Source of the DNA: Candidatus Poribacteria bacterium | GTDB lineage: Bacteria > Poribacteria > WGA-4E > PCPOR2b | Assembly: GCA_965222435.1 (NCBI GenBank) | Contig: OZ244950.1 | Span: 1,707,273-1,771,272 of the forward strand | Direction: 5' to 3' | Length of the DNA stretch: 64,000 bases | In this document: positions 2,266 to 58,400 of the stretch, piece by piece | Layout: each line of letters begins with the position of its first letter | How positions within the stretch are numbered: the stretch's first letter is position 1 | Translations under genes and position numbers: made by a program | The notes under the pieces: model-generated | Databases searched by the model: none | The model's input: the letters and a program-made list of their open reading frames with translations, nothing else | Told to the model about the DNA's origin: nothing

Positions 2266-3084
2266 ATGAAAGATACCGAAGCCGTTACCCTTACCCCCGC
2301 ACAACGGCTGCATTTCGACATCTACGGTTTTGTACTATTGGAAAACGTCTTGACCCCCGATGAAGTGGCTCGCATGAAGGACGCGCTCCATCGAATGAAA
2401 GCCGATCCGGACCTCGAGTCCAAGCGGGTCTACACCCATCAGCGTGGTGAACACCATGTCCTGCTGGGCAATCTGGTGGAGTATGACCCTGCCCTGCTGG
2501 AATATGCCGCCCATCCCAAACTGGTGCCGCTCGTTGAGGAGGTAGTCGGTGGCAAGGTGCGCCTTGAGGAGACTGAGGCGATTATCAACCGCAGAGATCC
2601 GGAAGCGGATATCGAGGAACTTCACAAACGACGCTATAACCCCACCGGATTGCATCGTGGGACACAGCACGGCTGGGGAACTTACATCGAACAGAGCAAA
2701 TTTCACTGTATCTTCGTTAAGACGCTGACCTATCTCACTGATGTGGGACCCGACGACGGGGGCACCTGCTTTATCCCCGGCAGCCACCGGCTCACTTGGG
2801 ATAGGGAAGAGATGATCGAAGCCGCCCTCTCTGATGACAACCTGATCTATCAGGTAGAGGCAACCGCTGGCTCGACCTTGCTCTTTCCGGAGTCACTCAT
2901 CCACAGCACGACCGCCATCCGCAGCGACAAGGAACGCACAATCCTAGTCGCTGGCTATACGCCGCCGATGGTGCGCGAATGGCCCGGAAACGAGATCAGC
3001 CCTGAGTTCGTCGAAACCCTACCCGAAGATATTAAGCCGCTTATCTCCGGAAGCGATAGCTGGCGTTGGGAAAGACGGTATTGA
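2266..3084 (+). CDS. phytanoyl-CoA dioxygenase (PhyH) family Fe(II)/2-oxoglutarate oxygenase
   Basis: 272 aa; LTDVGPDDGGTCFIPGSHRL and later HSTTA motifs typical of PhyH-like dioxygenases. Confidence 0.7.
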   Translation: MKDTEAVTLTPAQRLHFDIYGFVLLENVLTPDEVARMKDALHRMKADPDLESKRVYTHQRGEHHVLLGNLVEYDPALLEYAAHPKLVPLVEEVVGGKVRLEETEAIINRRDPEADIEELHKRRYNPTGLHRGTQHGWGTYIEQSKFHCIFVKTLTYLTDVGPDDGGTCFIPGSHRLTWDREEMIEAALSDDNLIYQVEATAGSTLLFPESLIHSTTAIRSDKERTILVAGYTPPMVREWPGNEISPEFVETLPEDIKPLISGSDSWRWERRY

Positions 3085-4413: not shown

Positions 4414-5979
4414 ATGAAGGGAAAGAAAAAATCGTTACGGTTGGGGCGTGTCTTGTGCACTCTCCTTATGGCGTCGTTGATTCTCCTACTCTGCGGAATA
4501 CCGGTGGCAAATGCACAAACGTCCCAGCAAATCGCCAAAAAAGCACTAGCAGCGACGGTGCTCTTAGTCATGGAAGACGCTAATAGCCGGCCGCTTTCAA
4601 TCGGTAGTGGATTCTTCGTGCAACCCAACCAGATTGTAACCAACTTTGACGTTATCGAAGGTGCCGTTAAGGGCTACGCAAAACGCGTGGGTGAAAAAAC
4701 GAAACGCGACATTGAAGGTGTCACCGGATTTGACGAGCAAGGGACTCTGGTTATACTAAAGGTGTCGGGCTCTGATGTTCAGCCGCTTCCCCTAGGCGAT
4801 AGTAACAAGGTTGGGATTGGTGAGACCGTTTATGTCGCGAGCAATCCAAAAGGAGATTTGGAAGGCACATTCTCGAAGGGCCTTATTAGTGGACTTCAAG
4901 GGGATTCAACCAACAAACAACTCCAGATGACGGTTCTGATTTATCCAGCGAGTAGTGGAGGTCCCGTGCTAAACGGAATGGGTGAAGTGATAGGTGTTTC
5001 GGTGGCAACCTTCCGCAGAGGGCAGAATCTTAGTTTTGCCATTCCTTCAAACGATCTCACAGCACTCGCCGCTACAGTTGGCCCCGCGATACCGTTGTCG
5101 AAATGGCAACAACTTATGTCTTCCGCTATAGGCAATTTGAAGGGGATTTTTAGCGATTATAAGGGTGCTATCGCTGACTTGGACACTGCTATCCGACTTG
5201 ACCCTGATAATTTCTTTGCTTACTTTAACCGGGGAGTTGCCAAGGGTGAGTTGGGTGATTATAAGGGTGCCATCGTTGATTTTGATACCGCTATCCGACT
5301 CAAACCCGATTATGCCGCTGCCTACTTTAATCGGGGAACTATCAAAGTAAAATTAGGACAACACTTCGCCGCTATCGCCGACTATGATACTGCTATCCGA
5401 CTTAAACCCGATTATGCCAAAGCCTACGATAGTCGGGGGACTGCCAAGGCAGCATTAGGACAACATTTCGCCGCTATCACCGACTATGATACTGCTATCC
5501 GACTCAAACCCGATGGTGTCATTGCCTACTTTAATCGGGGAACTACCAAGGCAGAATTAGGACAACACTTCGCCGCCATCGCCGACTATGATACTGCCAT
5601 CCGACTCAAATCCGATTATGCCGCTGCCTACGGTAATCGGGGGATTGTCAAGGCAGAATTAGGACAACACTTCGCCGCTATCACCGACTATGATATTGCC
5701 ATCCGGCTTAAACCTGATAATGTCATTAACTACCTTAATCGAGGAAATGCGAAGGCAGAATTAGGACAATATTCCGATGCTATCACTGACTACGATACCG
5801 TCATCCGACTCAAATCCGATTTTGCCAAAGCCTATTATAATCGGGGATTGGCAAAGTACGGCTTGAGTCGGTCCATGGAGGCAAAGCAAGATTTTCAAAC
5901 GGCATTGAAACATGCGGATCAGGCTGGCGATGCGCTTCTCAAAACCCAAATTGAGTCGGCGATTCGAGACCTCCACTAG
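4414..5979 (+). CDS. secreted trypsin-like serine protease with C-terminal TPR repeats
   Basis: N-terminal signal peptide; S1-like motifs (GSGFFV, PASSGGPVLN); about seven consecutive 34-aa TPR units (AIADYDTAIRLKPDYAAAYFNRG...). Confidence 0.65.
   Translation: MKGKKKSLRLGRVLCTLLMASLILLLCGIPVANAQTSQQIAKKALAATVLLVMEDANSRPLSIGSGFFVQPNQIVTNFDVIEGAVKGYAKRVGEKTKRDIEGVTGFDEQGTLVILKVSGSDVQPLPLGDSNKVGIGETVYVASNPKGDLEGTFSKGLISGLQGDSTNKQLQMTVLIYPASSGGPVLNGMGEVIGVSVATFRRGQNLSFAIPSNDLTALAATVGPAIPLSKWQQLMSSAIGNLKGIFSDYKGAIADLDTAIRLDPDNFFAYFNRGVAKGELGDYKGAIVDFDTAIRLKPDYAAAYFNRGTIKVKLGQHFAAIADYDTAIRLKPDYAKAYDSRGTAKAALGQHFAAITDYDTAIRLKPDGVIAYFNRGTTKAELGQHFAAIADYDTAIRLKSDYAAAYGNRGIVKAELGQHFAAITDYDIAIRLKPDNVINYLNRGNAKAELGQYSDAITDYDTVIRLKSDFAKAYYNRGLAKYGLSRSMEAKQDFQTALKHADQAGDALLKTQIESAIRDLH
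5150..5870 (+). repeat. tandem ~102-bp repeats encoding TPR units
   Basis: Near-identical 102-nt units visible at nucleotide level (gctatccgactcaaacccgat... recurring), in-frame within the protease gene. Confidence 0.6.
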
Positions 5980-8381: not shown

Positions 8382-9143
8382 ATGGATTGGCAAAAGGATT
8401 CACAACAACTCAAAGATGCCTTTGACCGAGATGGATTTGTGGTCATTCCCGGTTTCTACACCCCGGAAGAGACAGCGGCGTTAAACGCTCATATTGATCG
8501 GTTCATTGCGGAGACGTTGCCCGGATTGCCGTCGGACGCAGCCTTTTACGAAGCCAAGGGGCAGACCGAAAGCATTATGCGGTTACAGGGCATGGCGTCT
8601 TACGACAGCCATTTCAAGGAACTTACCGAGAGCGATCGGTTTGCCAAGCTGGCGGAATTGCTGCTAGACGATGGGGTTATAAGTAAAAATATGGAGTGGT
8701 TCACGAAACCCGCCCGCAGCGGTGCAGAGACGCCACCCCATCAAGATGGGTTCTACTTCATGCTCGAACCAAACGAGGCACTGACGTTGTGGCTGGCATT
8801 GGATACGGTGAATGATGAGAACGGCTGTATCCACTATGCACGGGGTTCTCACCGCCGAGGCATGAGACCCCACCGACAGACAGCCGTGTTCGGGTTCTCC
8901 CTAGGAGTTACGGACTACGACGAAGCGGATTATCAAGAGGAAGCAGCCATCCATGCCGCGCCGGGCGATATGATCGTGCATCACTGCATGACGATTCATC
9001 GCGCAGGTTCCAACCCCACCACGAACCCGCGCCGGGCACTGGGGCTTGTCTATTATGCTCAACGTGCTAAGGCGGATGCAGAACGTCAGGCGGCGTACAA
9101 GAAAGAGCTAATGGAACTATGGGAAAAAGAGGGGAAACTTTAG
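8382..9143 (+). CDS. phytanoyl-CoA dioxygenase family protein
   Basis: 253 aa; PhyH-like pattern (FVVIPGFYTPEE, HQDGFYF, IHYARGSHR, HHCMTIHRAGSN). Confidence 0.7.
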   Translation: MDWQKDSQQLKDAFDRDGFVVIPGFYTPEETAALNAHIDRFIAETLPGLPSDAAFYEAKGQTESIMRLQGMASYDSHFKELTESDRFAKLAELLLDDGVISKNMEWFTKPARSGAETPPHQDGFYFMLEPNEALTLWLALDTVNDENGCIHYARGSHRRGMRPHRQTAVFGFSLGVTDYDEADYQEEAAIHAAPGDMIVHHCMTIHRAGSNPTTNPRRALGLVYYAQRAKADAERQAAYKKELMELWEKEGKL

Positions 9144-9401: not shown

Positions 9402-10178
9402 ATGCTGACCGATGCACAACTCTACCATTTCGCTGTTCACGGTTGGGTACTCCAAGAGGACGTATTCAGTCCTGAAGAGGTCGATGCCTTCAAGTGCGGA
9501 CTTGATCAACTCTATGAAAGAAAAGTCTCGACAATGAAGGACTCCGAAGACATCAAGAACATCAACAACATGGTGAACTACGACCCAATCTATCGGGATT
9601 GGATGATGTCGCCGAAAATCCTCCCCGTTCTGAAGCAGCTCTTGGGAACACCACCCCGTTTTGAGTGCTGTCACGCGATGATAAAATCCCCACACCCCGA
9701 CCGGACGAAACGGCGCGATGAACTTCGGGATACGGAAAAGATGGGGTGGCATCGCGGCATTCGACCAAAATATGGTATCGTGCCGGCGAACAACCATCCC
9801 TACATCAACACAACCTTCCTCAACAACGCCACCTACCTGACGGACGTTGATCCTGAACATGGCGGCACAATGATCCTAGACGGCTCACACCGAATCGAGG
9901 CGAAGGATTGGAAAGAAATTTTCGATCCCGCGATGGTCGTTCAGATTGAAGCAAAGGCGGGATCGGTGATGCACTTCACGGAGGCGTTGGTTCATACCGG
10001 TGTCCCGATCCTCTCCGAGCAAACTCGCTATACGATGTTCTACGGTTTCACTCCGCCGTGGATGCAGTGTTGGCCCGGATGTAGCCCGACACAGGAAGTC
10101 ATTGACGCCAGCGAAGGGGAACTCAAGGAAATCCTCGGAGGACGCACGGGATATATGGGACAGTACGGACCTGAGTGA
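9402..10178 (+). CDS. phytanoyl-CoA dioxygenase family protein
   Basis: 258 aa; LTDVDPEHGGTMILDGSHR and FTEALVHTG motifs. Confidence 0.7.
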   Translation: MLTDAQLYHFAVHGWVLQEDVFSPEEVDAFKCGLDQLYERKVSTMKDSEDIKNINNMVNYDPIYRDWMMSPKILPVLKQLLGTPPRFECCHAMIKSPHPDRTKRRDELRDTEKMGWHRGIRPKYGIVPANNHPYINTTFLNNATYLTDVDPEHGGTMILDGSHRIEAKDWKEIFDPAMVVQIEAKAGSVMHFTEALVHTGVPILSEQTRYTMFYGFTPPWMQCWPGCSPTQEVIDASEGELKEILGGRTGYMGQYGPE

Positions 10179-10233
10179 GTAGAACCCTACGAACCCAAAA
10201 TCTGAATCCCTTGTGAGAAGGAGGGTATATTCA

Positions 10234-11040
10234 ATGCTATCCGATTTGGAAGTTGGACAATTTTGGACATTCGGGTTCACTGTCTTGAGAGGCTGCCTGA
10301 GCGAAAAAGAGGTAGACCGTCTACAGGAAACACACAATCGCGTCATTGCAGACGCACCGGTCTACAACTATTTCGCCGAGAACGGCACCCGGATGCTGAG
10401 CCCTTTCGTCCAAGCGGACGATGAATTCGCAGAGTTAATCGAGCATCCCGGTGTGATGGAAGCCATGCGCGATATCTGGGGGACAGAGTGTCTCTATATT
10501 GCCGGCAGCGATATGTGGGCGAACCGAGATGACACCCCTTGGCACACCGACGGTCAGCCGGGGCGACAGAACGTCACGCTCAAGACCGCCATATACCTCG
10601 ATGAGCAGTCCAAAGATCTGGGATCGTTGAACCTGATTCCCGGCAGCCACCATCCTGAATACTCTGCAGCACTCTTCCGATCCTGCGGTTACTGGGATAG
10701 GGGAAGACCCCGCCTGCGCCTCGATCCCCATGCAATTCCGGGAGTTCTCTCCGTCCAGACCTGTCCCGGAGATGTTGTGTTGTGGGACAATCGCCTGTGG
10801 CACTCCGCCTTCAAACGCAAGGACGGTCGTCCCCGGCGGACGATGTTTATCGGCTATATACCGGACCCCCAAGATGACCTGCTCGCGATCAAAGACCTTC
10901 GTACGACGATTGAAACTCAATCAACTGAGCAGCAGCCGTTCGTCTATAGCAAGGAGATGATGGAAAAGGGTTGTCCTAGGCGCGAGAAGATGGCGGTACG
11001 GCTAGAGGAATTGGGCGTGGAAAAGGTGAGAGAAACATAA
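10234..11040 (+). CDS. phytanoyl-CoA dioxygenase family protein
   Basis: PhyH-like (LNLIPGSHH, VVLWDNRLWHSAF); start set at internal ATG preceded by aggagg. Confidence 0.65.
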   Translation: MLSDLEVGQFWTFGFTVLRGCLSEKEVDRLQETHNRVIADAPVYNYFAENGTRMLSPFVQADDEFAELIEHPGVMEAMRDIWGTECLYIAGSDMWANRDDTPWHTDGQPGRQNVTLKTAIYLDEQSKDLGSLNLIPGSHHPEYSAALFRSCGYWDRGRPRLRLDPHAIPGVLSVQTCPGDVVLWDNRLWHSAFKRKDGRPRRTMFIGYIPDPQDDLLAIKDLRTTIETQSTEQQPFVYSKEMMEKGCPRREKMAVRLEELGVEKVRET

Positions 11041-12512: not shown

Positions 12513-13070
12513 TTAGAGAAACGCTTTCTCTCTCGATTCCTCCGAGACATCCCACGCACGGTCATATTCATAGTCGTCCCGACGCGCTAACAGTGCCCGC
12601 AGATCGTGTCGCAGTTCCTCCACGGTGGGTCTTCCAACAAACCACCAACCGTTGTAAATCTTGTAGATCTCCCGGTCCGCGTTAAGGACGAAAGTATAGG
12701 GGATAGGAATCGGCGAGTGGCGGGCGTCCGTGTTGTCTACAATGTCCAATTCATTGATCAATGCCCGGTCAAGGTCAATCAGGAAGGGCCACGTCGCGCC
12801 GATACGTTCACGAAGCGCCCTCGTTGTTTCCTGATCATCAACTGAGACAGCAATTAGCCTACAGTAGTTGACTTCTAGTTCGGGCTGCAAATCTTTTGCG
12901 TAATTCTCCAACTGGAGAACATCCTTCGGTCAATATGCCCCACGCCAGAAGACCAAGACCGTGGGCCAACCACGCATCAAATCCTCCAGCGTTCTGACCA
13001 TGCCATCTTGATCGGGACGTTCAAAGTTCGGGAATATGTTGCCCGGTATCAAATCTTCACGGATCTTCAT
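12513..13070 (-). CDS. thioredoxin-fold redoxin (peroxiredoxin-like) with in-frame TGA: candidate selenoprotein
   Basis: ATG at 13070..13068 preceded by aggagg (5-nt spacer); reading frame is continuous with listed ORF 12513..12911 except for one TGA at 12932..12930; translation ...TVLVFWRGAY-U-PKDVLQLENYAKDLQ... places TGA at the expected redox-Cys position. Confidence 0.6.
12904..12919 (-). promoter_or_regulatory. candidate bacterial SECIS hairpin
   Basis: uucucc-AGUU-ggagaa hairpin beginning 14 nt after the in-frame UGA, apical loop contains GU. Confidence 0.4.
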
Positions 13071-25202: not shown

Positions 25203-27143
25203 CTATTTTAGAATGACCATCTTGCGCATTGCATAAAAATGGTCTGCTTGTAACTGGTAAAAATAAACGCCACTTGCGACTGATTCCCCGCTTTCGTTGT
25301 GCCCATCCCAATACGCTGCGCTTGTCCTATCTGTGTAGTAGCCCGGCTGCTGATACCCAAAATCTAACTGACGCACCACTACGCCTTGAGGGTCGTAAAT
25401 GGTCAGCGTCACATCGGCAGCGTGGGCAAGGTGATAGGGAATCCATGTCTCTGGGTTGAATGGATTGGGATAGTTTGCAAGCAGTACAGTTTTGTGGGGT
25501 ATAAAGGGCAGAGAAACGTCCTGTAAGGCAGCGCGCAGTTGGTTGAGATTGGCAATACCTTGCCGGAAAGCGAACGAACCATCATCTGCGGCGTGCGCCA
25601 TATCAATCCACTTTTGAATCGTTGCGGGGTCAATCCCGAACGTTTGCCATGCAAGCCCGCCGGGAGCCAAGGGGGTCGTTGCGCCCCCCAAGTGTTGAGC
25701 AACGGTGATGAGGTCAAAAATATTAACTATTCCATCGTTGTTGACATCCGCTTGGGGGTGGGCTTGACCAAAGTTTTGGCCCACCAGAACCAGATCCAAG
25801 ATATTTACCAGCCCATCCCCATTGAGATCATAATCCGATTCAACGACAATCTCAAGGGCGTGAATCCCGATATCAATCTCCTGATCGAAAAGTGTACGGA
25901 AGTCGACGTTGTGGAGGCTTAACTCCCCTTTTCCAGCCGCCCTTGCTTGAAAGGTTACTGACAGCAGTACATCACTGATCTGGAAGCAGTCCGCACCCAA
26001 CTCCATATTAACGCCGGTGATTCTGCCTGCCGCGTTGTCAATAATGCCCTCTTGAAAGACAGATTGGCTGCATCCATTATCGAGAGAAATATAGGTGCCT
26101 TCATCGACTTGAAGCGCGACAAGTACGCCGGGTGTGAACGCAATATCAAGTTCCCAACCCTCTAAAAGCAGAAAACCATCCAGATGGAGATTGAGTTTAA
26201 ATATCTCCCCAACACGAACTTGATCGATCAAGGGAAAGAAAAGGTGTGTACTTCCCACCCGAACCCCTCGATCCGAAAGGGCTGGAATATGTGTGTTGAT
26301 GGAGATGTCGCTTAGCGGGTTATCATCTACAACAACCTTATCTCCACGATCAAGCCCCATGTTTGCTACCAAGGGTGACAGATCCGATATTCCGTTGTTT
26401 TCAAGCCATAGCTCTTTCAGATTGGTCAAGCCCACCAAAGTCGATATATCCGCGAGACCATTGTGATTAAGATTCAAATCTGTCAAGTTCGTTAAAGCTG
26501 CTAAAGGCGATATATCTGTGATCGCATTATAGCCAAGATATAGGTCTTTCAGATTGGTCAAGTCCGCTAAAGGTGATATATCCGTGATGGCGTTGAAGCC
26601 GAGACTCAGATTTGTCAGGTTTGTCAAGCCTGCCAATACCGATATGTCAGTGAGCGCATTGTCAATAAGATATAAGTATGTTAGGTTTGTCAAGCCCATC
26701 AACGCTGATATGTCTGCGATAGGGTTGGAGCCAAGCCATAGGTCTGTTAGATTGGTCAAGCCCGCCAAAGGCGATATATCTGTAATGGTGTTGGAACCAA
26801 GATGTAGATCTGTCAGGCTCGTTAAGGTTGCCAAAGGCGCGATGTCCGATATCGCATTATCAGAAAGAAACAGCGTGTCTAGGTTGGTTGCGGACTCAAG
26901 TCCGGTCAAATTGCGGATTTGAGAGTTAAACCCGAAGATATAGGTCAAACTCTCCATCTCCGCCACAGTAATTGTAGCACCGGATGCCTTGCCAAGTTCT
27001 TCCTCCACCAAAGCGCGGAGGTTGGGGTCGGGTATATCAACGATTTGGGCAGATACCAAGTCCACTCCTATTATTGTAACGGAACAGACTATTGATATTG
27101 CTATTATAATGATTCTCATTTGAAATTTTCTGATCCTATTCAC
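25203..27143 (-). CDS. secreted leucine-rich-repeat protein with dockerin-like repeats and T9SS-type C-terminal sorting domain
   Basis: Signal peptide; at least 8 LRR units of 22 aa (LxxLTNLTxLxLxxNxIxDISPLA); two dockerin-like DxNxDGxVN repeats; C-terminal YPNPFNPET...GVYFYQL...KMVILK tail. Confidence 0.65.
   Translation of the reverse strand: MNRIRKFQMRIIIIAISIVCSVTIIGVDLVSAQIVDIPDPNLRALVEEELGKASGATITVAEMESLTYIFGFNSQIRNLTGLESATNLDTLFLSDNAISDIAPLATLTSLTDLHLGSNTITDISPLAGLTNLTDLWLGSNPIADISALMGLTNLTYLYLIDNALTDISVLAGLTNLTNLSLGFNAITDISPLADLTNLKDLYLGYNAITDISPLAALTNLTDLNLNHNGLADISTLVGLTNLKELWLENNGISDLSPLVANMGLDRGDKVVVDDNPLSDISINTHIPALSDRGVRVGSTHLFFPLIDQVRVGEIFKLNLHLDGFLLLEGWELDIAFTPGVLVALQVDEGTYISLDNGCSQSVFQEGIIDNAAGRITGVNMELGADCFQISDVLLSVTFQARAAGKGELSLHNVDFRTLFDQEIDIGIHALEIVVESDYDLNGDGLVNILDLVLVGQNFGQAHPQADVNNDGIVNIFDLITVAQHLGGATTPLAPGGLAWQTFGIDPATIQKWIDMAHAADDGSFAFRQGIANLNQLRAALQDVSLPFIPHKTVLLANYPNPFNPETWIPYHLAHAADVTLTIYDPQGVVVRQLDFGYQQPGYYTDRTSAAYWDGHNESGESVASGVYFYQLQADHFYAMRKMVILK
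26380..26900 (-). repeat. tandem 66-bp LRR-coding repeats
   Basis: Repeated units visible at nucleotide level within the LRR gene. Confidence 0.5.
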
Positions 27144-27484
27144 TTTTGTCCCCCTTCATTTTTCATCAACTATAATGATGCAACATTTGTCAAGCCTATC
27201 ACAAGAAAAACGTGGTATTCCACAGGGTATGTTGACATTTTACTGTCGCTAATTCGGGAGATGCTAGAATCATCCCTCTATCTGTCAAAAACCGAGGCGG
27301 TTATCCGAAATTACCTCAAGTTGCTTTAAATCCCGATCTTATCGGGGGTGTATTAGGTCAAAGACTCTCGGAACGGAGATTGATTCAATCTGTCAAATGT
27401 CAATAGAACTGAGTAAAAAAATGAAATCACAGATACCACCAATCTGCCATCTTAATTAGTAAGCCAACCGATACAAGCAAAAAC

Positions 27485-28273
27485 TTAACTCCTGTTCTCC
27501 TCATCCAAAAGTTCTTCCAACTCCTCTAGGAAATCCACCGCATCGTCCTCATCTTCGTGGCTCCCTTGTTCTCCTTCTAGCCCCTCTTCCACCGACTCCA
27601 GATCTGATCGAAACTCAATCAGGTTACTCAAATAACGTTCACGGGTAACGTTTTCCGCATCGCCATAGTTCTCGCGCAAACACTCACCACAAAATTTCCC
27701 AATGCGCTGAATTCCTAAATTGACCTGACCCAATGCGCCTGGGTGGTCGTCCTCCATCAGGCAAAGTTCAGCATTCGCCATGCTGTTCATCATGAGCATA
27801 TAGCCTTTATATTGGTAACTCTCCCACGCAATGTCGGGAGGGGCATATTTCTTTGCCATATCCGTAGTAGCAAGGTTCATGTCGGTGTCTCGCTTGACAT
27901 CCGCCCACCGTTTAATCCCCGCGAACAGCAGATAACGGGTATATCTATCGTAAGACTCTCGGAATAAGACATGCCAATCCTCCGGTGTTAAACCAAACCC
28001 TTCATCGCTACCATGCTGCTGTTTATAATCCTCAAGTTGTTCGCAGAAGTACTCATGATAAGACTCTCGCCCATGAGGTCTTTTGCCATCGGGACGCCCG
28101 GACGTATAGATACGTGAAATCGTGAACTCATTTGATTGCACAACAACAACTTCTTTGCCTTCGGCTAACTTCAAGACCTTTATTGGGTGAGCAACATCAA
28201 ACGATAAACTGTCCAAAATCTCATCAAGTGCACGCACCAGACGCGTGTTTCTTTCGACCTGATTAGTTGCCAT
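27485..28273 (-). CDS. hypothetical protein with acidic C-terminal tail
   Basis: 262-aa ORF with aggaga SD; no recognisable domain. Confidence 0.4.
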   Translation of the reverse strand: MATNQVERNTRLVRALDEILDSLSFDVAHPIKVLKLAEGKEVVVVQSNEFTISRIYTSGRPDGKRPHGRESYHEYFCEQLEDYKQQHGSDEGFGLTPEDWHVLFRESYDRYTRYLLFAGIKRWADVKRDTDMNLATTDMAKKYAPPDIAWESYQYKGYMLMMNSMANAELCLMEDDHPGALGQVNLGIQRIGKFCGECLRENYGDAENVTRERYLSNLIEFRSDLESVEEGLEGEQGSHEDEDDAVDFLEELEELLDEENRS

Positions 28274-33564: not shown

Positions 33565-35187
33565 TCATGCCTCTATTTCAAGTTGCTGGCTTTGGGGGGC
33601 TGCCCGTTCTGCCCTGCGGAATGTGACATCAATAGGCGTCTGTGGATATTCAATACCGTGTCCCGCAAGCAGTTCCTCAATCGTCCGAATCTGAATCTTT
33701 GGATATGTCGTGTGAGTGACGTGAAGCCATTGAAAACGCCCTGCTGTCGCTGCTTCCTTGAGCATCGGTTGGGTCGGCGGATTCAGCGTGATAAAGACAC
33801 CAATCACAGCGTCTTGGGTTTCAACAACCGATTTCAGTTCCCGTATGTCCCTAACAGAAACCTTCCCACTTTTAACCTGAACGACAATCTTCCGGGTCAG
33901 CGTCTTTTTCGGCTTATCTGGATCAACATCCTGATAATAGATCATCCCGTCCACACCCTCGTCTGCCCCCTTCTTTTTCCCCTGATACGGTCTCGCCCGA
34001 ATCAGGCTTAACGCCCACCACTGGAATTGATACCGATCTTGAACCGCTAAAGCCTTCGCGCTCTCTGCATCTTTCGGCTCACCGATAACTTCGTATTTCA
34101 CACCGTCACCAAAGGCATCGGCAAGGCGGTACTTCAATAAAGCGATGGCAAGATGTGTGATGTCAACCCCAATCCACCGGCGGTTAAACTGTTGAGCAAC
34201 AGCGACAGCCGTCCCACAACCACAAAACGCGTCCAATACAACATCGCCTTCGTTACTACTCGCTTTGATAATCCGCTCAAGCAATGCTTCAGGCTTTTGG
34301 GTGGGATATCTGAGACGCTCTTTCGCTTGAGAGTTTATAGGTGGTATATCAACCCAAACATCCTGCATAGGAACACCGGGCATCTCATCTAAAAATTGTT
34401 TCAATCTAGGTGTACCATAGCGAGTATAGTATAGTTTGCCGGATTCATGGTATTCCTGCATAGTGCTATACGGACAGCGCCAAATCTTAGTTATTCCATT
34501 CCACTCATACTCATATCCTCCTCCACTCAAAGAGCCTGCCGTTAAATCCCTGTCTAAAAATCTTCTGCCATTTTCATCAGTATGTTTATAATACTTCTCA
34601 ATGTACCCATCAGAATATGGTAGATACTGTTCATTATGAGTGAAAGAATTACTTATTGAATAGTAAAGTATAATGTCATGTACGTTCCCATATACGGCAG
34701 AATCATTATGGGCTGCGGTTCGTCTCCAAGTAATCTCATTCCTGAAATTTTTAACGCCAAAAATCTGATCCAAGATAATCTTCAGATAATGCGACGCCGT
34801 CGGATCACAATGGAGATAAAAGCTCCCTGTCGGTTTCAGGACACGGTGGAGTTCCACCAATCGCAACCCCATCATCACGAGGTACGCCATCAGATTGTTT
34901 TCACCGAGGATTCCGCGAAAACTCTTGATTGTCTCAACCAGAAGGGGTGGCGCGGTCTCGACCAGCTCATAATATGCCTGCTCAGTGGTTTCGACCCAAT
35001 GCCATGTATCCTCAAAGGCTTGGATCTGTGCCTGCGACGATGAGCCATCCCTTTCGCTGAAAATCACGTTGTACGCTTGATTCGAGTTAAATGGCGGATC
35101 GATGTAAATGAGATCGACGCTTTCGTCGGGGATGTGGGCCCGCAAAATGTCTAGATTGTCACCATAGTAGAGTTGATTCATATCCAT
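33565..35187 (-). CDS. DNA methyltransferase (N6-adenine/N4-cytosine type) fused to a C-terminal Mrr-like PD-(D/E)xK nuclease domain
   Basis: Motif IV DPPF (LIYIDPPFNS) before motif I (VVLDAFCGCGTAVAVA), i.e. beta-class order; C-terminal GADEGVDGMIYY...VVQVKSGK...GVFITL resembles the Mrr catalytic domain. Confidence 0.6.
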   Translation of the reverse strand: MDMNQLYYGDNLDILRAHIPDESVDLIYIDPPFNSNQAYNVIFSERDGSSSQAQIQAFEDTWHWVETTEQAYYELVETAPPLLVETIKSFRGILGENNLMAYLVMMGLRLVELHRVLKPTGSFYLHCDPTASHYLKIILDQIFGVKNFRNEITWRRTAAHNDSAVYGNVHDIILYYSISNSFTHNEQYLPYSDGYIEKYYKHTDENGRRFLDRDLTAGSLSGGGYEYEWNGITKIWRCPYSTMQEYHESGKLYYTRYGTPRLKQFLDEMPGVPMQDVWVDIPPINSQAKERLRYPTQKPEALLERIIKASSNEGDVVLDAFCGCGTAVAVAQQFNRRWIGVDITHLAIALLKYRLADAFGDGVKYEVIGEPKDAESAKALAVQDRYQFQWWALSLIRARPYQGKKKGADEGVDGMIYYQDVDPDKPKKTLTRKIVVQVKSGKVSVRDIRELKSVVETQDAVIGVFITLNPPTQPMLKEAATAGRFQWLHVTHTTYPKIQIRTIEELLAGHGIEYPQTPIDVTFRRAERAAPQSQQLEIEA

Positions 35188-36029: not shown

Positions 36030-36046
36030 TCACGTTTCACGCTTCA
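36030..36046 (-). repeat. three tandem heptamers giving TGA in all three frames at pyrC stop
   Basis: Minus-strand acgtgaa-gcgtgaa-acgtgat; TGA at 36046, 36039, 36032. Confidence 0.4.
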
Positions 36047-37318
36047 CGTTCGGGTAACAACACCGTCCCGGATAGTCATCACAGACCATCCCTTCAATTC
36101 CCAACCGTCAAAGGGGGTATTACGGCTTTTGGAGGGAGACTGCGTCACATCCACCGTCGCAACCTTCTCCGGATCTATCAACGTCACGTCAGCAGCTGCA
36201 CCGATTGAGAGTGTTCCGCGATCAATTTGCAGAATCTTAGCAGGGACACAAGTCATTTTCGCTATCGCCTCCGATAACGTGAACTGACCCGTGTGGATAA
36301 GTCGATCAAATACAAGCGGTACGCAGGTCTCTGATCCGATGATGCCCGGCGGGGCGTCAAGCAGACCCTGCGCCTTTTCAAACGGGGCATGTGGCGCGTG
36401 GTCTGTCGCAATCGCATCGAGCGTACCGTCTTTGATCCCTTCGATGACGGCATCAACGTCAGCCTGTGTACGCAAGGGCGGATGCATCTTGGCATTCGTA
36501 CCCTGTTCTTCGACCGCTTTATCGGTGAGCGTAAAGTGGTGTGGCATCGCTTCGGCGGTCACATTGACACCCCTGCGTTTGCCCCAACGGACAAGATCAA
36601 CGGATCCCGCGGTACTAACATGGAGGACATGGAGGTGCCCGCCGGTCAGTTCAGCGAGCATGATGTCGCGGGCAACGATAATATCTTCCGCAGCGTTGGG
36701 GCTTCCTATCAGGTTCAACCGCCGCGATGTTTCGCCGAGGTTCATGACCGCTCCCACGTCAAGGTTATGTTCTTGGCAATGAACCATAACGGGAAAAGCG
36801 TGTTTCGCACTCAACGCCAGCACATCGCGCATCAACCCCGCATCCATGACCGTTTTGCCATCGTCTGATAGTCCGACAGCACCGGCTGCTATCAACGCTG
36901 GCACATCCGTCAATACTTCGCCATCAAGATTTTTCGTGATGCTGCCGATTGGAAACACATTTGTTGCACCATTTTTCCGCGCTTGTGACTGTATCAATTC
37001 GATAACATCGGGTGAATCTGCCACCGGATTGGTATTCGCCATGCACACAACAGAAGTAAATCCGCCAGCCGCTGCCGCCCGGGTGCCTGATGCGATTGTC
37101 TCCTTGTGCTCAAATCCGGGTTCGCGGAGATGAACGTGCATATCAATCAAGCCCGGCGTAACGATTAGCCCTGTCGCATCAACGGTTTGAGACGCCTCAA
37201 TTTCAATTCGGTCATCAATTCGATCGATTTTCCCATCACGAATCAGGAGATCTCCGGTGGTGTCAGTCTCGTTGGCAGGGTCAATAATCCGACCGTTTCG
37301 GATGAGTATCCGACTCAT
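36044..37318 (-). CDS. pyrC: dihydroorotase
   Basis: DMHVHLREPG metal-binding motif, amidohydrolase-superfamily fold, 424 aa; adjacent to pyrR. Confidence 0.85.
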   Translation of the reverse strand: MSRILIRNGRIIDPANETDTTGDLLIRDGKIDRIDDRIEIEASQTVDATGLIVTPGLIDMHVHLREPGFEHKETIASGTRAAAAGGFTSVVCMANTNPVADSPDVIELIQSQARKNGATNVFPIGSITKNLDGEVLTDVPALIAAGAVGLSDDGKTVMDAGLMRDVLALSAKHAFPVMVHCQEHNLDVGAVMNLGETSRRLNLIGSPNAAEDIIVARDIMLAELTGGHLHVLHVSTAGSVDLVRWGKRRGVNVTAEAMPHHFTLTDKAVEEQGTNAKMHPPLRTQADVDAVIEGIKDGTLDAIATDHAPHAPFEKAQGLLDAPPGIIGSETCVPLVFDRLIHTGQFTLSEAIAKMTCVPAKILQIDRGTLSIGAAADVTLIDPEKVATVDVTQSPSKSRNTPFDGWELKGWSVMTIRDGVVTRT

Positions 37319-37869
37319 GGATTGTCCTCCTCGTAAATCACCGCCCGGTCAACCCCATCCTCCTCGACCAACTGAACGCGAACAATCTCCTTACGCGAAG
37401 TCGGAATATTCTTTCCGATGTAATCCGCCGCAATCGGGAGTTCACGATGACCTCGATCAATGAGAACCGCCAATTGAATTGCTGCAGGTCGTCCAAAATC
37501 CATGACTGCGTCCATGGCAGCACGAACAGTGCGTCCGGTGTAAAGCACCTCATCAACCAAGATGACACGCTTTCCTGTTGGATCAAACGGGATCTCTGTG
37601 CGATTCACTTTAATCGTCTCATCATACAGGTTCACGTCATCTCGATAGAGCCGCACATCAACGACGCCGACGGGAACTTTAATCCCCTCAGTCCGCTCCA
37701 GATTTTCAGCGATTCGACGTGCCAAGTGATCCCCCCGGCTTTTAACCCCAATGATTGCCAGATCCGCAATTTCTTGGTGGCTTCGCTCCAAAATCTCATG
37801 TGATATTCGGACCACCGCCCGCCGAATGTCCTCCGCTGTCATCACTTGTGTCTTTTCACGCATTTGCAT
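37315..37869 (-). CDS. pyrR: bifunctional pyrimidine operon regulator / uracil phosphoribosyltransferase PyrR
   Basis: Strong similarity to PyrR pattern (VILVDEVLYTGRTVRAAMDA, ADYIGKNIPTS); start among several in-frame Met, approximate. Confidence 0.8.
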   Translation of the reverse strand: MQMREKTQVMTAEDIRRAVVRISHEILERSHQEIADLAIIGVKSRGDHLARRIAENLERTEGIKVPVGVVDVRLYRDDVNLYDETIKVNRTEIPFDPTGKRVILVDEVLYTGRTVRAAMDAVMDFGRPAAIQLAVLIDRGHRELPIAADYIGKNIPTSRKEIVRVQLVEEDGVDRAVIYEEDNP

Positions 37870-37893
37870 AATCTTTCCTCGCACCAACACTCC

Positions 37894-51938: not shown

Positions 51939-53315
51939 ATGCAGATCAACGACTCAATTACCGTTGAACAACTCAGACCGAAACTTGACCATCTGTTTGA
52001 GCTTTCGGGAAAGAAAATTCTGGCAATCGAAGACACATGGCTCCCCTCAAAAGGAACGCCGGTGTTCACTGTCGCCGGTCAGTATACCACGCGAGGTTGG
52101 ACAGAATGGACGCAGGGATTCCAATTCGGCTCCGCACTGCTGCAATTCGATGCAACAGATGACGAGCAGTTCCTCGAAATCGGACGGAAGAACACGGTCC
52201 AAAAGATGGCACCCCATCTGACACATATCGGCGTACACGACCACGGATTCAACAATGTCTCAACCTATGGCAATTTACGGCGCATGATCCTTGAAGGGCG
52301 CATCTCACACAACGATTGGGAACTCCATTTCTACGAACTTGCGTTGAAGGTGTCGGCGGCGGTGCAGGCGAGTCGCTGGTCAAAGATCAAAGATGGAAAA
52401 GGCTACATCCCCTCTTTCAATGGACCTCACTCGCTTTTCGCCGATACCATCCGCTCACTCCGGGCGTTGGCGTTGGGACATAGCTTAGGGCATGTGCTGA
52501 TGGGCGAAAATGACCAGCCAATCGCTTTACTGGAGCGGTTGTTACACCACTCCGAGACGACCGCAGCTTATAATGTCTACTACGGCGAAGGACGTGATGC
52601 GTTCGACGTACGTGGGCGCGTTGCACACGAATCGATCTTTAACATGAATGATGGCAATTACCGCTGTCCAAGCACACAGCAGGGGTACTCACCGCTTACG
52701 ACATGGACGCGGGGACTCGCATGGCTTATCACCGGCTATGCCGAGCAGCTTGAGTTTTTTGAGACACTGGCAGACGACGATCTCACCCCTTATGGCGGGA
52801 AGGCAGGGGCAACCGCGCATATACTAAAAGCCGCCGAAGCAACCTGCGATTTTTATGTTGAGAACACAGCCACAGACGGTATCCCGTATTGGGACACCGG
52901 GGCACCGGGGCTGCCTCGGCTTGGATCGTATCTCCAACAACCCGCAGACCCATTCAACGAGGTTGAACCTGTTGATAGCTCCGCAGCCGCCATCGCCGCG
53001 CAAGGGTTAATCCGATTGGGAAATCATCTTAAAAAACAGGGGGAGCAGGCAACTGGGAAACGCTACTATCAGGCGGGATTAACGGTCGCTGCCACGCTCT
53101 TTTCCGAATCGTATCTTTCAGAATCTGACGAACATCAGGGCTTAATCCTGCATTCAATCTACCATCGTCCAAACGGTTGGGATTATATCCCCGAAGGCAG
53201 CGCGATCCCTTGTGGTGAATCGTCAATGTGGGGCGACTACCACGCACGAGAACTTGGACTGCTCTTGCTACGGGAATTGGAAGGTCAACCGTATCTGACT
53301 TTTTGGGGAAACTAG
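51939..53315 (+). CDS. hypothetical protein (possibly alpha/alpha-barrel glycoside-hydrolase-like)
   Basis: 458-aa ORF; function not recognisable with confidence. Confidence 0.35.
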   Translation: MQINDSITVEQLRPKLDHLFELSGKKILAIEDTWLPSKGTPVFTVAGQYTTRGWTEWTQGFQFGSALLQFDATDDEQFLEIGRKNTVQKMAPHLTHIGVHDHGFNNVSTYGNLRRMILEGRISHNDWELHFYELALKVSAAVQASRWSKIKDGKGYIPSFNGPHSLFADTIRSLRALALGHSLGHVLMGENDQPIALLERLLHHSETTAAYNVYYGEGRDAFDVRGRVAHESIFNMNDGNYRCPSTQQGYSPLTTWTRGLAWLITGYAEQLEFFETLADDDLTPYGGKAGATAHILKAAEATCDFYVENTATDGIPYWDTGAPGLPRLGSYLQQPADPFNEVEPVDSSAAAIAAQGLIRLGNHLKKQGEQATGKRYYQAGLTVAATLFSESYLSESDEHQGLILHSIYHRPNGWDYIPEGSAIPCGESSMWGDYHARELGLLLLRELEGQPYLTFWGN

Positions 53316-53363: not shown

Positions 53364-54104
53364 ATGCAATTAACAGACAAACAGGTGCAACAGTTTCACG
53401 AAGAAGGCTACTTGATTTTTGAAAATCTAATCCACGGCGAAAAACTCAAAGCCTATCAGGATTTCTTTGATGAACTGGTTGAGCGCAGCCGCACCCTCCC
53501 AGTTAACCTTCCACACTGGACATTTGAATTTAGTGAAGACCACGAACCAATTCCGGGGTTTTTACACAAAATTCAAGGCGTGTGCGTCGTTGAGCCGAAG
53601 GTATTGGATCTCGCCCAAGAGGCGGAAATCCTTGACCGAGTCCAAGCACTCGTCGGTCCCGACATTGACGTATTCGGCACCAAGTTCTTTCCCAAGCTGC
53701 CGAATGGCGGCACCTCGGTAGACTGGCATCAGGACAACTTCTACTTCGGCACAAACACAAACCGAATTGTCAGTTGCGGTATTTACCTTCAAGACGCTGA
53801 TCGTGATAACGGCTGCCTGAGAATTGTTCCGAAAAGTCACCTGTCCCAAGCGATTGTAGAACATCATCGGAGGCAGGGGGCACACGGGAGTTGGACAGAG
53901 GTAGACGAATCGAAAGCCGTCGATGTGGAGGTGCCCGGTGGCACGGTAGTTTTTTTCTCATCGAACCTCCTTCACGGAACGTATGAAAATCGTAGTAATC
54001 GCCCTCGCTACAGCACTGCTTGGCACTATATCCCCGGCGATCTGTCCCTAGAACGGTTCCCACGTGACGGTTACGAGGATCGGCACATTGTTCGGGGGGA
54101 TTAA
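53364..54104 (+). CDS. phytanoyl-CoA dioxygenase family protein
   Basis: VDWHQDNFYF, IVPKSHL, LLHGT motifs. Confidence 0.7.
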   Translation: MQLTDKQVQQFHEEGYLIFENLIHGEKLKAYQDFFDELVERSRTLPVNLPHWTFEFSEDHEPIPGFLHKIQGVCVVEPKVLDLAQEAEILDRVQALVGPDIDVFGTKFFPKLPNGGTSVDWHQDNFYFGTNTNRIVSCGIYLQDADRDNGCLRIVPKSHLSQAIVEHHRRQGAHGSWTEVDESKAVDVEVPGGTVVFFSSNLLHGTYENRSNRPRYSTAWHYIPGDLSLERFPRDGYEDRHIVRGD

Positions 54105-54123
54105 CATACCAAAAGAGGACAAT

Positions 54124-54915
54124 ATGCTCAGTCACTCTGAAATAGAATCATTCCTTCAAGACGGCTATGTCATCCGTAGAGGTGTATTATCCCAAACGGA
54201 CATTGAGACATATCGCGCCGCTGTCGATTCCATCCTACACAAATGCCGCATCGAAAAGGTGCATCAATATTTGCGCTACGTTGATGGCGAACAAGATGAC
54301 ATCTGGGGCGTAAATAACGTCTTTCATCCAAGCATCAGAGAAGCAGCCCTCGTCGAATCGCTTGGGCATCCCCAGATTTTGGATGTCATCGAAAGCCTAA
54401 TCGGGACGCGGTTGCGCTATCATCTGTGCACACTGTTGGTCAGCCCAGAACGCAAGCCGTATCACATCAACTGGCATCGCGATTCAACAAGAGATGGCGA
54501 GGTGCCACGCGAACAACTGATAGCAAAACTCAGGAGCAGCGCTCAACTGAACGGCGCGTTATACGACGATGAAACCCTCTTCATCGTCCCCGGCAGTCAC
54601 CGACGGGAGATCACCGACACCGAGCGGCACATCCTACAAAATTCGCCCAAAGCCGACATGCCCAACCAGATGGCTGTCCAACTAAAGGCGGGCGATATTG
54701 TTTTCTACAATTCCAGCCTGCTCCACAAAGGGTATAACCGGTCTAGCGTGATCCGCCAAACACTACATTACGCGCTTGTGGTTGCACCCCCCGAAGGGGA
54801 ACCGCCAAACCCGGATAGCCCCACCGGTCAGGAGTGGCTGAACGATTCATCATTCCTTGAAAGTCTCAACCCGCGAATCAAACCGCTTTTCGATAATTGG
54901 TTAAAATACGGATAA
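54124..54915 (+). CDS. phytanoyl-CoA dioxygenase family protein
   Basis: INWHRDS, IVPGSHRRE, LLHKGYN motifs; start at internal ATG 54124. Confidence 0.65.
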   Translation: MLSHSEIESFLQDGYVIRRGVLSQTDIETYRAAVDSILHKCRIEKVHQYLRYVDGEQDDIWGVNNVFHPSIREAALVESLGHPQILDVIESLIGTRLRYHLCTLLVSPERKPYHINWHRDSTRDGEVPREQLIAKLRSSAQLNGALYDDETLFIVPGSHRREITDTERHILQNSPKADMPNQMAVQLKAGDIVFYNSSLLHKGYNRSSVIRQTLHYALVVAPPEGEPPNPDSPTGQEWLNDSSFLESLNPRIKPLFDNWLKYG

Positions 54916-57051: not shown

Positions 57052-58400
57052 CCCTCCTCAAGTCAGTTACCCCACCCTAAAGGGTGAGGGTTGTTGCCTT
57101 GTCCCTTGGGATTTATTGGGTTGCGCGCTTCCGTCCCTTTCGGGTGCTTCGGGGGTGTTAGTAACCACCGCACCTCCACGCAAGGCTACAGCAGCCTTTT
57201 TGATGTTTATAGCAGCGTTATGGTCTCTGTCTAAAATCAGACCACAATCGGTACAATCATGGACTCTTACAGAGAGCGCTTTCTTGACAATCGAACCGCA
57301 CCCGGCACATTTCTGGCTTGTATAGTGGGGGTTGACTTTCGTAAACTGCTTGCCGGCACTTTCAGCCTTGCTTTGCAGCTTCAATCGAAAGCGACCCCAC
57401 CCTGCGTCCGAGATGCTCTTAGCGAGGTAATGGTTCTTGACCATGTTCTTAATTTGGAGGGTCTCAACAGCTACTTCGTCGCACCGTTCAAGGATAGAAT
57501 GTGCCGCCTTAAACTGAAAGTCTTTCCGTTGGTTCGCAACGTGTTCGTGGCAACGGGCAACAGTATCACGTTGTTTCGATCTACGTTTGCTTCCTTTATT
57601 ACGTCGTGCGAGTATCTGTTGATGTCTAGCAAGTTTCTTTTCCGCTTTACGGAAATGGCGGGGGTTCGGGATTTGCTCGCCGTCCGAATCAACGACAAAG
57701 GCGTTAAGCCCCACATCAATGCCGAGTGTCGTTTGAACGGGGACTTCAATCGGGGCCGGAACCTCAACGACGATTGTGGCGTGCCAACCGGACGCCTTTT
57801 TGGAGAGGGTCAACGTCTTAATTTTACCATCGGGCAACGGGCGATGGTGTCGAATCTTCAGGTGGCCGACTTTCGGGACAACTATACGGGCAAACTTCCT
57901 ATGGACATTGCGAATCAAATTGTTAGACAGGTGACTAAAGGTCATCGACCTATACCGTCCTTCGCCTTTGAAGCGTGGGAACCCCGGTTCACCACCTGTT
58001 TTGATGCGGCGAAAGAATGCTTTGTATCCTTTATCCAAACGGCGAATCGTATCTTGGAGAACGTCGCTATGGAGACCGGCAAACGATGTCGATTCTTGTT
58101 TCAGGTCAGGCAAAGCGTTCGCTTGTGTCGTCCACTTTACCGACTCGCCGGTGTTTTTGTACGTCTCTATACGCCATGCAAGGGCTTGATTGTAAAGGTG
58201 TCTCAACAATGCCAACCAAACGGTAAAGGTGGTCCGTTGCTTGGTTGTAGGATACGCACGATATTCATAAGTCTTTTTCATTATTTTACCTGCAAAATCA
58301 ACCAAAAAAGGAACGCAGTTTCCTCCCCACGCTAAAGCATGGGGTTTCCACTGCGAAGATTTTGATGAATATAGGGCGAATGATAACACAGGGGATTAAA
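57052..58400 (-). mobile_element. IS200/IS605-family element remnant (tnpB only, no tnpA seen)
   Basis: Solo tnpB; ends not defined; tnpB stop lies 15 nt from the uracil-DNA glycosylase start. Confidence 0.4.
57067..58281 (-). CDS. tnpB: IS200/IS605-family TnpB (OrfB)
   Basis: RuvC-like core and C-terminal zinc finger CAGCG...CTDCG...NAAINI; start at internal ATG 58281. Confidence 0.75.
   Translation of the reverse strand: MKKTYEYRAYPTTKQRTTFTVWLALLRHLYNQALAWRIETYKNTGESVKWTTQANALPDLKQESTSFAGLHSDVLQDTIRRLDKGYKAFFRRIKTGGEPGFPRFKGEGRYRSMTFSHLSNNLIRNVHRKFARIVVPKVGHLKIRHHRPLPDGKIKTLTLSKKASGWHATIVVEVPAPIEVPVQTTLGIDVGLNAFVVDSDGEQIPNPRHFRKAEKKLARHQQILARRNKGSKRRSKQRDTVARCHEHVANQRKDFQFKAAHSILERCDEVAVETLQIKNMVKNHYLAKSISDAGWGRFRLKLQSKAESAGKQFTKVNPHYTSQKCAGCGSIVKKALSVRVHDCTDCGLILDRDHNAAINIKKAAVALRGGAVVTNTPEAPERDGSAQPNKSQGTRQQPSPFRVG

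Follow-up and report, generated by a model that had tools for sequence, protein, structure and literature searches.

By which route do Poribacteria bring their eukaryote-like repeat proteins to the cell surface? Sponge symbionts are thought to use such proteins in dealing with their host. Their surface delivery has been a standing question since 2014, the year in which C-terminal tails matching TIGR04183, the model of the type A sorting domain of the secretion system of type IX (T9SS), were reported on many eukaryote-like proteins of the phylum with leucine-rich repeats (LRR), WD40 and other repeats (PMC3909097); closed poribacterial genomes now make the question testable. The locus analysed here codes for an LRR protein of 646 aa and lies on the minus strand of a 64,000 bp stretch of a Candidatus Poribacteria bacterium (assembly GCA_965222435.1, contig OZ244950.1, positions 1,707,273 to 1,771,272), called the window in the following. 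A previous reading of the letters without database searches (the sequence-only reading) had described the gene product as a secreted LRR protein with dockerin-like repeats and a T9SS-type tail.

We found that the last ~350 aa of the protein constitute a cassette of four parts, cohesin, dockerin, hairpin and C-terminal domain (CTD), which is reused on many passenger domains. From these results we favour, with a probability of roughly 0.55, the interpretation that a sponge-associated Poribacterium displays the gene product on its surface as an LRR binding protein, which is anchored by its CTD and linked to sister proteins by calcium-dependent cohesin–dockerin contacts.

Domain architecture of the LRR protein

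The protein comprises, from the N-terminus to the C-terminus, a signal peptide, an N-terminal cap, nine LRRs, a C-terminal cap, a cohesin, a dockerin, a two-helix hairpin and the CTD (Table 1). The domains listed by the sequence-only reading are among these, but the cohesin directly preceding the dockerin and the hairpin had been overlooked.

By inspection, the N-terminus (MNRIRKFQMR-IIIIAISIVCSVTIIGV-DLVSA followed by Q33) is laid out like a Sec signal peptide, with a charged, a hydrophobic and an AXA-like part; a signal peptide had been proposed before, and the layout is conserved in the orthologues. The residue right after the predicted cleavage site, Q33 (codon 27045-27047, minus strand), is invariant in 33 of the 33 aligned homologues. 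It recalls the "Q-rule" of pyroglutamate N-termini in Bacteroidetes (PMC5837995), or it may instead simply belong to the conserved LRR cap motif AQVVDIPDPNLR. A lipoprotein was also considered and was rejected for this orthologue group, the context of Cys20 (S-I-V-C) being no canonical lipobox; an L-V-G-C context is present in some paralogues.

At least eight repeats of 22 aa had been counted before; nine are in register and are followed by a capping repeat. The Pfam model LRR_4 matches the region with an E-value of 1e-40, and matches in the PDB were obtained to Listeria InlA (E 1.6e-105) and to the LRR of a Chlorobium Roco protein (E 2e-80). AlphaFold2 (AF2) predicts one strand per repeat and helices in the caps with a predicted local distance difference test score (pLDDT) above 95. 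Both attributes of internalin-type LRRs, a tandem 22-residue solenoid and a helical N-terminal cap, are thereby present. Among the orthologues the highest entropy is found at repeat positions 4, 6, 7, 9 and 11, that is, on the concave face and in the following loop; along the solenoid position 4 is occupied by F, H, W, Y, S, Y, N and W. A concave face as variable as this is what one expects of a ligand-binding surface.

The protein is not an internalin in the family sense. It shares the 22-residue LRR type and the helical N-terminal cap with the class 1 internalins of Listeria monocytogenes (InlA, InlH, InlB), the NCBIfam model internalin_A matches over its LRR with an E-value of 1.9e-70, and like the internalins it could be a surface-displayed binding protein with its variable residues on the concave face. 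However, the full-length scores are far below the cut-offs (238 bits vs 1600 for internalin_A, 150 vs 1050 for internalin_H), the immunoglobulin (Ig)-like inter-repeat domain is missing, and reading of the sequence revealed neither an LPXTG or GW anchor nor any other Gram-positive one. Moreover, what comes after the LRR is a cohesin, a dockerin, the hairpin and the CTD, and the organism is a diderm. Horizontal transfer from a eukaryote was rejected in view of the bacterial internalin repeat type and of the closest relatives, all of which are bacterial.

The gene is functional and under purifying selection, as its low ratio of nonsynonymous to synonymous substitutions (dN/dS, Nei–Gojobori) indicates: 0.19 for the whole gene against an orthologue of 96% identity and 0.23 against one of 74%. 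The domains under the strongest constraint are the CTD (0.077) and the dockerin (0.04-0.19). The orthologue with 74% identity, aligned over all 646 residues, is encoded on the 6.8-Mb Candidatus Poribacteria chromosome OZ242335.1, and two other poribacterial records also match the LRR protein. The 96%-identical orthologue (P0121) was used in the look-ups, the window protein itself having no exact database match. It occurs on 15 contigs, among them the circular 6.31-Mb contig ERZ26694896 ctg118094; in every case its neighbours are carB and a conserved 262-aa gene to one side and a MoxR ATPase gene to the other. Orthologues with 74-96% identity share the gene neighbourhood in several 6-Mb genomes. 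Over the orthologues as a whole, the length varies from 596 to 668 aa, with differences of whole LRR repeats.

The C-terminal cassette

A search with the C-terminal 351 aa (residues 296-646) returned 5,078 database proteins, in which the cassette either has next to no other sequence beside it or is joined to a passenger domain (LRR, Laminin_G_3, Ldl_recept_b, WD40, Big_1 or EF-hand). An exhaustive profile search yielded 6,783 cluster representatives at E <= 1e-30, the best 150 of which range from 248 to 2,295 aa in length. The gene in the window is thus an ordinary member of a large and widely reused family. Across the cassettes the identity falls from 71% in the CTD to 62% in the dockerin, 60% in the hairpin and no more than 35% in the cohesin. 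Cohesin and dockerin are separated by 1-8 residues in 156 cassette proteins, and by 2-3 in the window protein.

The order cohesin-dockerin-hairpin-CTD is the majority architecture. Among 247 relatives, 47 have a dockerin and a CTD without a cohesin, and 11 have two cohesins before the dockerin. In a few proteins the number of cohesins is three to five, and a CTD may be present or absent. One multi-cohesin relative, P0320, was found on short metagenome contigs only. In some dockerin-CTD proteins a GHL15-like domain takes the place of the cohesin. Two such genes lie in tandem in Candidatus Poribacteria CBDCUX010000005.1 (7313-10165 and 10304-12718) and code for proteins in which a GHL15 glycosyl-hydrolase-like domain stands between LRR and dockerin; the first protein ends behind the dockerin, the second goes on into hairpin and CTD, and a short open reading frame (12835-13059) with another dockerin follows both.

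As a general class, repeat proteins of Poribacteria with tails of the Por type were already published in 2014 (PMC3909097). The proteins described by Kamke et al. come from the same phylum, carry signal peptides and a C-terminal sorting domain of the Por type, and have a route of secretion that was left unexplained; in contrast to the present description, neither cohesin nor dockerin occurs in that text (0 occurrences). Our literature search on Poribacteria or sponge symbionts together with cohesin and dockerin gave nothing relevant. In the literature searched we found no account of the four-part cassette, of its size (~6,800 clusters) or of its multi-cohesin members, all of which are described here.

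Cohesin, dockerin and hairpin

The two dockerin-like repeats noted before were confirmed as the calcium loops of one dockerin: DLNGDGLVNILD (residues 439-450) and DVNNDGIVNIFD (residues 466-477). Pfam Dockerin_1 (PF00404) reaches 31.0 bits against a cut-off of 22.9, and the PDB dockerin 2y3n_B is matched with an E-value of 8.9e-9. Loop positions 1, 3, 5 and 12 are invariant or nearly so: D439, N441, D443, D450, D466, D470, G471 and D477 are invariant in 33 sequences, and N468 is conserved in at least 90%. The helices at 448-456 and 475-482 (153-161 and 180-187 in the cassette model) complete the two-loop layout of a type I dockerin.

The domain between the LRR and the dockerin has the cohesin fold and is read as a divergent cohesin. 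The Pfam cohesin model PF00963 gave no match at E <= 1 on the window protein, although it matches many paralogues. A hidden Markov model (HMM) was built from the paralogue cohesins, that is, from sequences outside this orthologue group, nearly all of which have a PF00963 match; it scored 103.8 bits on the window protein. A family profile of 60 members compared with the PDB found cohesins (E 9e-13), dockerins (1e-10) and FlgD Ig domains (3e-5). An AF2 model of residues 296-646 based on 60 sequences (mean pLDDT 81.6) replaced a first full-length model from 33 sequences (mean pLDDT 70, below 50 in the tail), which was good for the LRR only. The cassette model shows, in this order, a beta-sandwich, the dockerin with its two helices, the two-helix hairpin and another beta-sandwich, with a pLDDT of ~85-98 in the cohesin domain. 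In a Foldseek search of the PDB with this multi-domain model, the top 50 matches listed are all cohesin-containing entries (E 1.5e-9 to 1e-5); the target-normalised template modelling (TM) score against PDB cohesins is up to 0.79, in agreement with a cohesin jelly roll.

The best fold matches (2w1n, 2jh2, 2vo8, 2xdh) are non-cellulosomal cohesins, from the GH84/GH33 toxin-complex modules of Clostridium perfringens and from Archaeoglobus fulgidus. There, cohesin–dockerin pairs assemble non-cellulolytic extracellular proteins, and both modules may be found on one polypeptide. Unlike these, the poribacterial modules stand back to back, are followed by the conserved hairpin and the T9SS-like CTD, and are joined to protein-binding repeat passengers.

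For the hairpin, no Pfam or NCBIfam family match was found. W512, I513, A516, S523, G529, L533 and L536 are among its invariant residues.

The CTD and the route of export

NCBIfam TIGR04183 matches the CTD with 26.3 bits against a cut-off of 23, and with 28.1 bits on the C-terminal half alone. All cassette members tested (60/60) match this model, with a best E-value of 4e-10, and the beta-sandwich is modelled with a pLDDT of 81-93. A Sec-type signal peptide, as judged by inspection, and a terminal beta-sandwich recognized by TIGR04183 are two of the attributes of T9SS type A cargo, and both were found; such cargo also presupposes the secretion machinery. At the level of the sequence, there is solid homology between the tail and type A sorting domains. 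The claim of a T9SS-type tail accordingly stood with respect to TIGR04183, whereas Pfam Por_Secre_tail (PF18962) remained under its cut-off (20.0 vs 27), and "T9SS-type" should be read as domain homology only. LRR_4, Dockerin_1 and TIGR04183 all passed in the domain search, and the earlier observation is thereby confirmed far beyond chance. The tail has a domain match of its own, so that the sequence-only reading, which would have fallen only if T9SS components and a domain match were both lacking, is not refuted.

In 60 proteins with different passengers, not one of the fourteen consecutive residues NYPNPFNPETWIPY varies, which argues for a shared partner. The CTD was detected in 138 of the best 150 representatives, and in 134 of these 138 it ends at the last residue of the protein. 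Because the CTD is nearly always terminal, common to unrelated passengers and the most constrained part, it would act like a signal for a common machinery.

We propose the Sec pathway as the protein's way across the inner membrane; the CTD would then direct it across or onto the outer membrane, either via a T9SS-like machinery or via an unknown equivalent. At the surface, cohesin and dockerin would bind in trans and with calcium to sister proteins, the dockerin-only and multi-cohesin relatives included. Binding in trans is proposed because the linker, judged by its length and not by a model, is taken to be too short for self-binding; it is also supported by the existence of dockerin-only and multi-cohesin partners and by the conserved calcium ligands. 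Through such contacts the displayed proteins could be joined in an assembly on the cell surface. The LRR would bind a protein or matrix ligand with its concave face, which is aromatic-rich and the fastest-evolving part; the ligand would most likely come from the sponge host or its mesohyl.

LRR proteins are known as T9SS cargo in Bacteroidota: InlJ of Porphyromonas gingivalis and BspA of Tannerella forsythia have a signal peptide, an LRR passenger and a type A CTD. Their organisms have a proven T9SS, and their presumed role is that of a surface adhesin towards the host. Neither InlJ nor BspA is known to have a cohesin–dockerin pair. The window protein resembles them in its signal peptide, LRR passenger and C-terminal type A sorting domain, and by analogy it may work like a T9SS LRR adhesin to which a non-cellulosomal cohesin–dockerin assembly module has been added. 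In contrast to the organisms of InlJ and BspA, no T9SS has been documented in Poribacteria (PMC3909097). In our literature search on Poribacteria together with T9SS or type IX secretion only irrelevant papers were returned.

A number of observations weigh against the favoured interpretation. No Por structural genes were reported in poribacterial single-cell genomes, which are incomplete (PMC3909097), and a 2022 review describes the T9SS as confined to Bacteroidetes (PMC11611037). Our own search for the machinery covered the 64-kb window and the loci read (~300 kb of poribacterial DNA) rather than a whole genome: no T9SS gene was found among ~40 open reading frames of the window by Pfam scan or syntenic-locus annotation, and no T9SS component in the ~20-kb neighbourhoods of relatives, paralogue loci included. 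As for the CTD itself, not only Por_Secre_tail but also CHU_C stays below its cut-off (21.0 vs 27), and the tail resembles FlgD Ig domains equally well. Two large relatives, P0293 (2194 aa) and P0311 (2295 aa), contain 13 and 15 tandem CTD-like Ig folds, and because of these copies the CTD fold can also be a plain structural Ig module. With respect to the assembly, the relative arrangement of the domains in the cassette model is uncertain (predicted TM score 0.52). Finally, the divergent cohesin may have lost dockerin binding, since the Pfam cohesin model misses this orthologue group and the cohesin is the least conserved part.

The first alternative is that the protein is canonical T9SS cargo, Poribacteria encoding a divergent but complete system with SprA/Sov as translocon, PorV as shuttle, PorU as sortase and PorKLMN as motor. 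The CTD would then be cleaved and the protein attached to surface lipopolysaccharide, as for Porphyromonas InlJ or Tannerella BspA. Besides the TIGR04183 matches above the curated cut-off and the strongest constraint in the CTD, the tail shows PNP and GxY motifs and a terminal K-x-x-x-x-K, cassettes also match the models of PorU, PorZ and T9SS-dependent proteases in the CTD region of these models, and a homologue is named [quoted passage not shown] at NCBI. This reading is nevertheless doubtful in view of the structural genes reported absent from the single-cell genomes (PMC3909097), their absence from the ~300 kb read and the lack of any report of a poribacterial T9SS in the open literature searched. 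If the machinery is present after all, the T9SS reaches well outside Bacteroidota; if it is absent, the cassette family suggests that CTD proteins take a route not yet known. In either case, the gene itself is an ordinary family member. The poribacterial passengers ride one shared, strongly conserved C-terminal module, made of a putative self-assembly pair and a type-IX-like sorting domain.

A more far-reaching proposal starts from the thousands of proteins that share the anchor module. An undescribed, cellulosome-like surface lattice could display the "eukaryote-like" binding proteins of Poribacteria and relatives, with single- and multi-cohesin members as outer-membrane-anchored scaffolds and the CTD read by a non-canonical machinery. 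We regard this as speculative and unlikely as a whole; if true, a new way of exporting or attaching proteins would exist in a phylum from which Por genes are reported to be missing.

It is still less probable that the CTD is a mere FlgD-like Ig spacer or stabilising module and that release or retention is brought about otherwise, for example by type II secretion or in the periplasm. Pfam FlgD_ig (PF13860) is the best-scoring model on the tail (36.4 vs a cut-off of 27), the FlgD structures 3osv and 7eh9 are its only PDB sequence matches, and both the tandem copies of the fold and the undocumented T9SS (PMC3909097) would fit a spacer. A spacer, however, does not account well for the exactly C-terminal position in the 134 relatives, for a CTD that is most conserved across unrelated passengers down to 14 consecutive residues, or for the lowest dN/dS in this domain; overall, this pattern is the one expected of a signal for a shared machinery. 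That the protein belongs to a true cellulosome-like polysaccharide-degrading complex with the LRR as mere scaffold is hardly credible: cohesin and dockerin are hallmark modules, and multi-cohesin relatives and sister proteins with the GHL15 domain between LRR and dockerin do exist, but Pfam and NCBIfam find no catalytic or carbohydrate-binding module in the window protein, the family passengers are mostly protein-binding repeats (LRR, WD40, LDL-receptor propeller, laminin-G), and the best structural matches include the non-cellulosomal cohesins of Clostridium perfringens toxin complexes and Archaeoglobus.

Genes and elements surrounding the LRR gene

Table 1. Coordinates of the LRR gene, its domains and other features of the window
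Feature	Position	Strand	Evidence or remark
Complete coding sequence, 646 aa + stop codon (stop at 25203-25205), GTG start	25203..27143	minus	listed open reading frame; syntenic 646-aa orthologues
Shine-Dalgarno-like GAAGGGGGA, purine-rich, 5 nt before the GTG start	27149..27157	minus	read from upstream sequence
Sigma-70-like promoter match TTGACA-16-TAGCAT, ~118 nt upstream of the start codon	27261..27288	minus	consensus match only, no functional evidence
Signal peptide, residues 1-32, predicted cut between VSA and Q33	27048..27143	minus	hydrophobicity profile and sequence, by inspection
Helical N-terminal cap, residues 33-66	26946..27047	minus	AF2 pLDDT ~88-97, helices 40-50 and 60-64; aligns with internalin cap
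Nine 22-residue internalin-type LRRs (xxLxLxxNxIxDIxPLxxLTNL), residues 67-264	26352..26945	minus	repeat register, Pfam, PDB, AF2
C-terminal LRR capping repeat and helix, residues 265-299	26247..26351	minus	AF2 strand 269-271, helix 279-291; 91% orthologue identity
Divergent cohesin-fold beta-sandwich, residues 300-435	25839..26246	minus	paralogue HMM, family profile, AF2, Foldseek
Dockerin, residues 438-486, two Ca-binding loops D439-D450 and D466-D477	25686..25832	minus	Pfam, PDB match, conservation
Two-helix hairpin, residues 505-541 (WIDMAHAADDGS..FRQGIANL)	25521..25631	minus	AF2 pLDDT ~85; paralogue HMM 68.5 bits
CTD beta-sandwich, sorting type, residues 556-646 (NYPNPFNPETWIPY...SGVYFYQL...RKMVILK)	25206..25478	minus	TIGR04183, PF13860, AF2
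Trypsin-like peptidase with tetratricopeptide repeats (TPR)	4414-5979		
Six PhyH (phytanoyl-CoA dioxygenase) genes	2266-3084, 8382-9143, 9402-10178, 10213-11040, 53364-54104, 54064-54915		
Fused N6/N4 DNA methyltransferase and Mrr-like endonuclease, 540 aa, intact	33565-35187	minus	
PyrR-binding RNA element, Rfam RF00515	38491-38618	minus	54.5 bits vs gathering score 54; upstream of pyrimidine operon
Ankyrin-repeat proteins, tandem paralogues, 392 and 399 aa	44061-45239, 45337-46536	plus	ankyrin repeats only in last 120 residues
TnpB/IS605 OrfB-type gene (helix-turn-helix, OrfB_IS605, Cas12f-like TNB domains)	57067-58389	minus	

Directly upstream of the LRR gene and on the same strand, a protein of 262 aa is encoded (27485-28273, minus), a position that it holds in six of the six syntenic loci. 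Its C-terminus is very acidic; it has no Pfam match, and no signal peptide was apparent on reading.

The set of eukaryote-like repeat proteins that the sequence-only reading had pointed to is indeed there: the window codes for two ankyrin proteins and a TPR protease, and Poribacteria are known for such proteins (PMC3909097). The N-terminal ~270 residues of both ankyrin proteins gave no family match. Four of the six PhyH genes are located within a 9-kb stretch; the expansion of phyH has been discussed as a poribacterial feature (Kamke et al. 2014, PMC3909097).

Housekeeping operons are also present in the window, and its content, with the PhyH genes, the ankyrin proteins and the TPR protease, is in keeping with a poribacterial origin. 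The pyrimidine operon comprises genes for a PyrR-like phosphoribosyltransferase (37315-37890) and a dihydroorotase (36044-37318), with carA and carB further downstream. The long open reading frames at 17-1603 (528 aa) and 51939-53315 (458 aa), both on the plus strand, are without Pfam match at E <= 0.01 and E <= 1e-5, respectively.

The methyltransferase–Mrr gene is split into two or three open reading frames in two orthologous loci (L001 and L005) and therefore appears to be decaying in some strains. TnpB copies of the same kind as the one in the window are inserted at variable sites by the LRR locus in four orthologous loci (L002-L005), between the MoxR gene and a 261-aa gene, and in one of these (L003) a DDE transposase follows the LRR gene.

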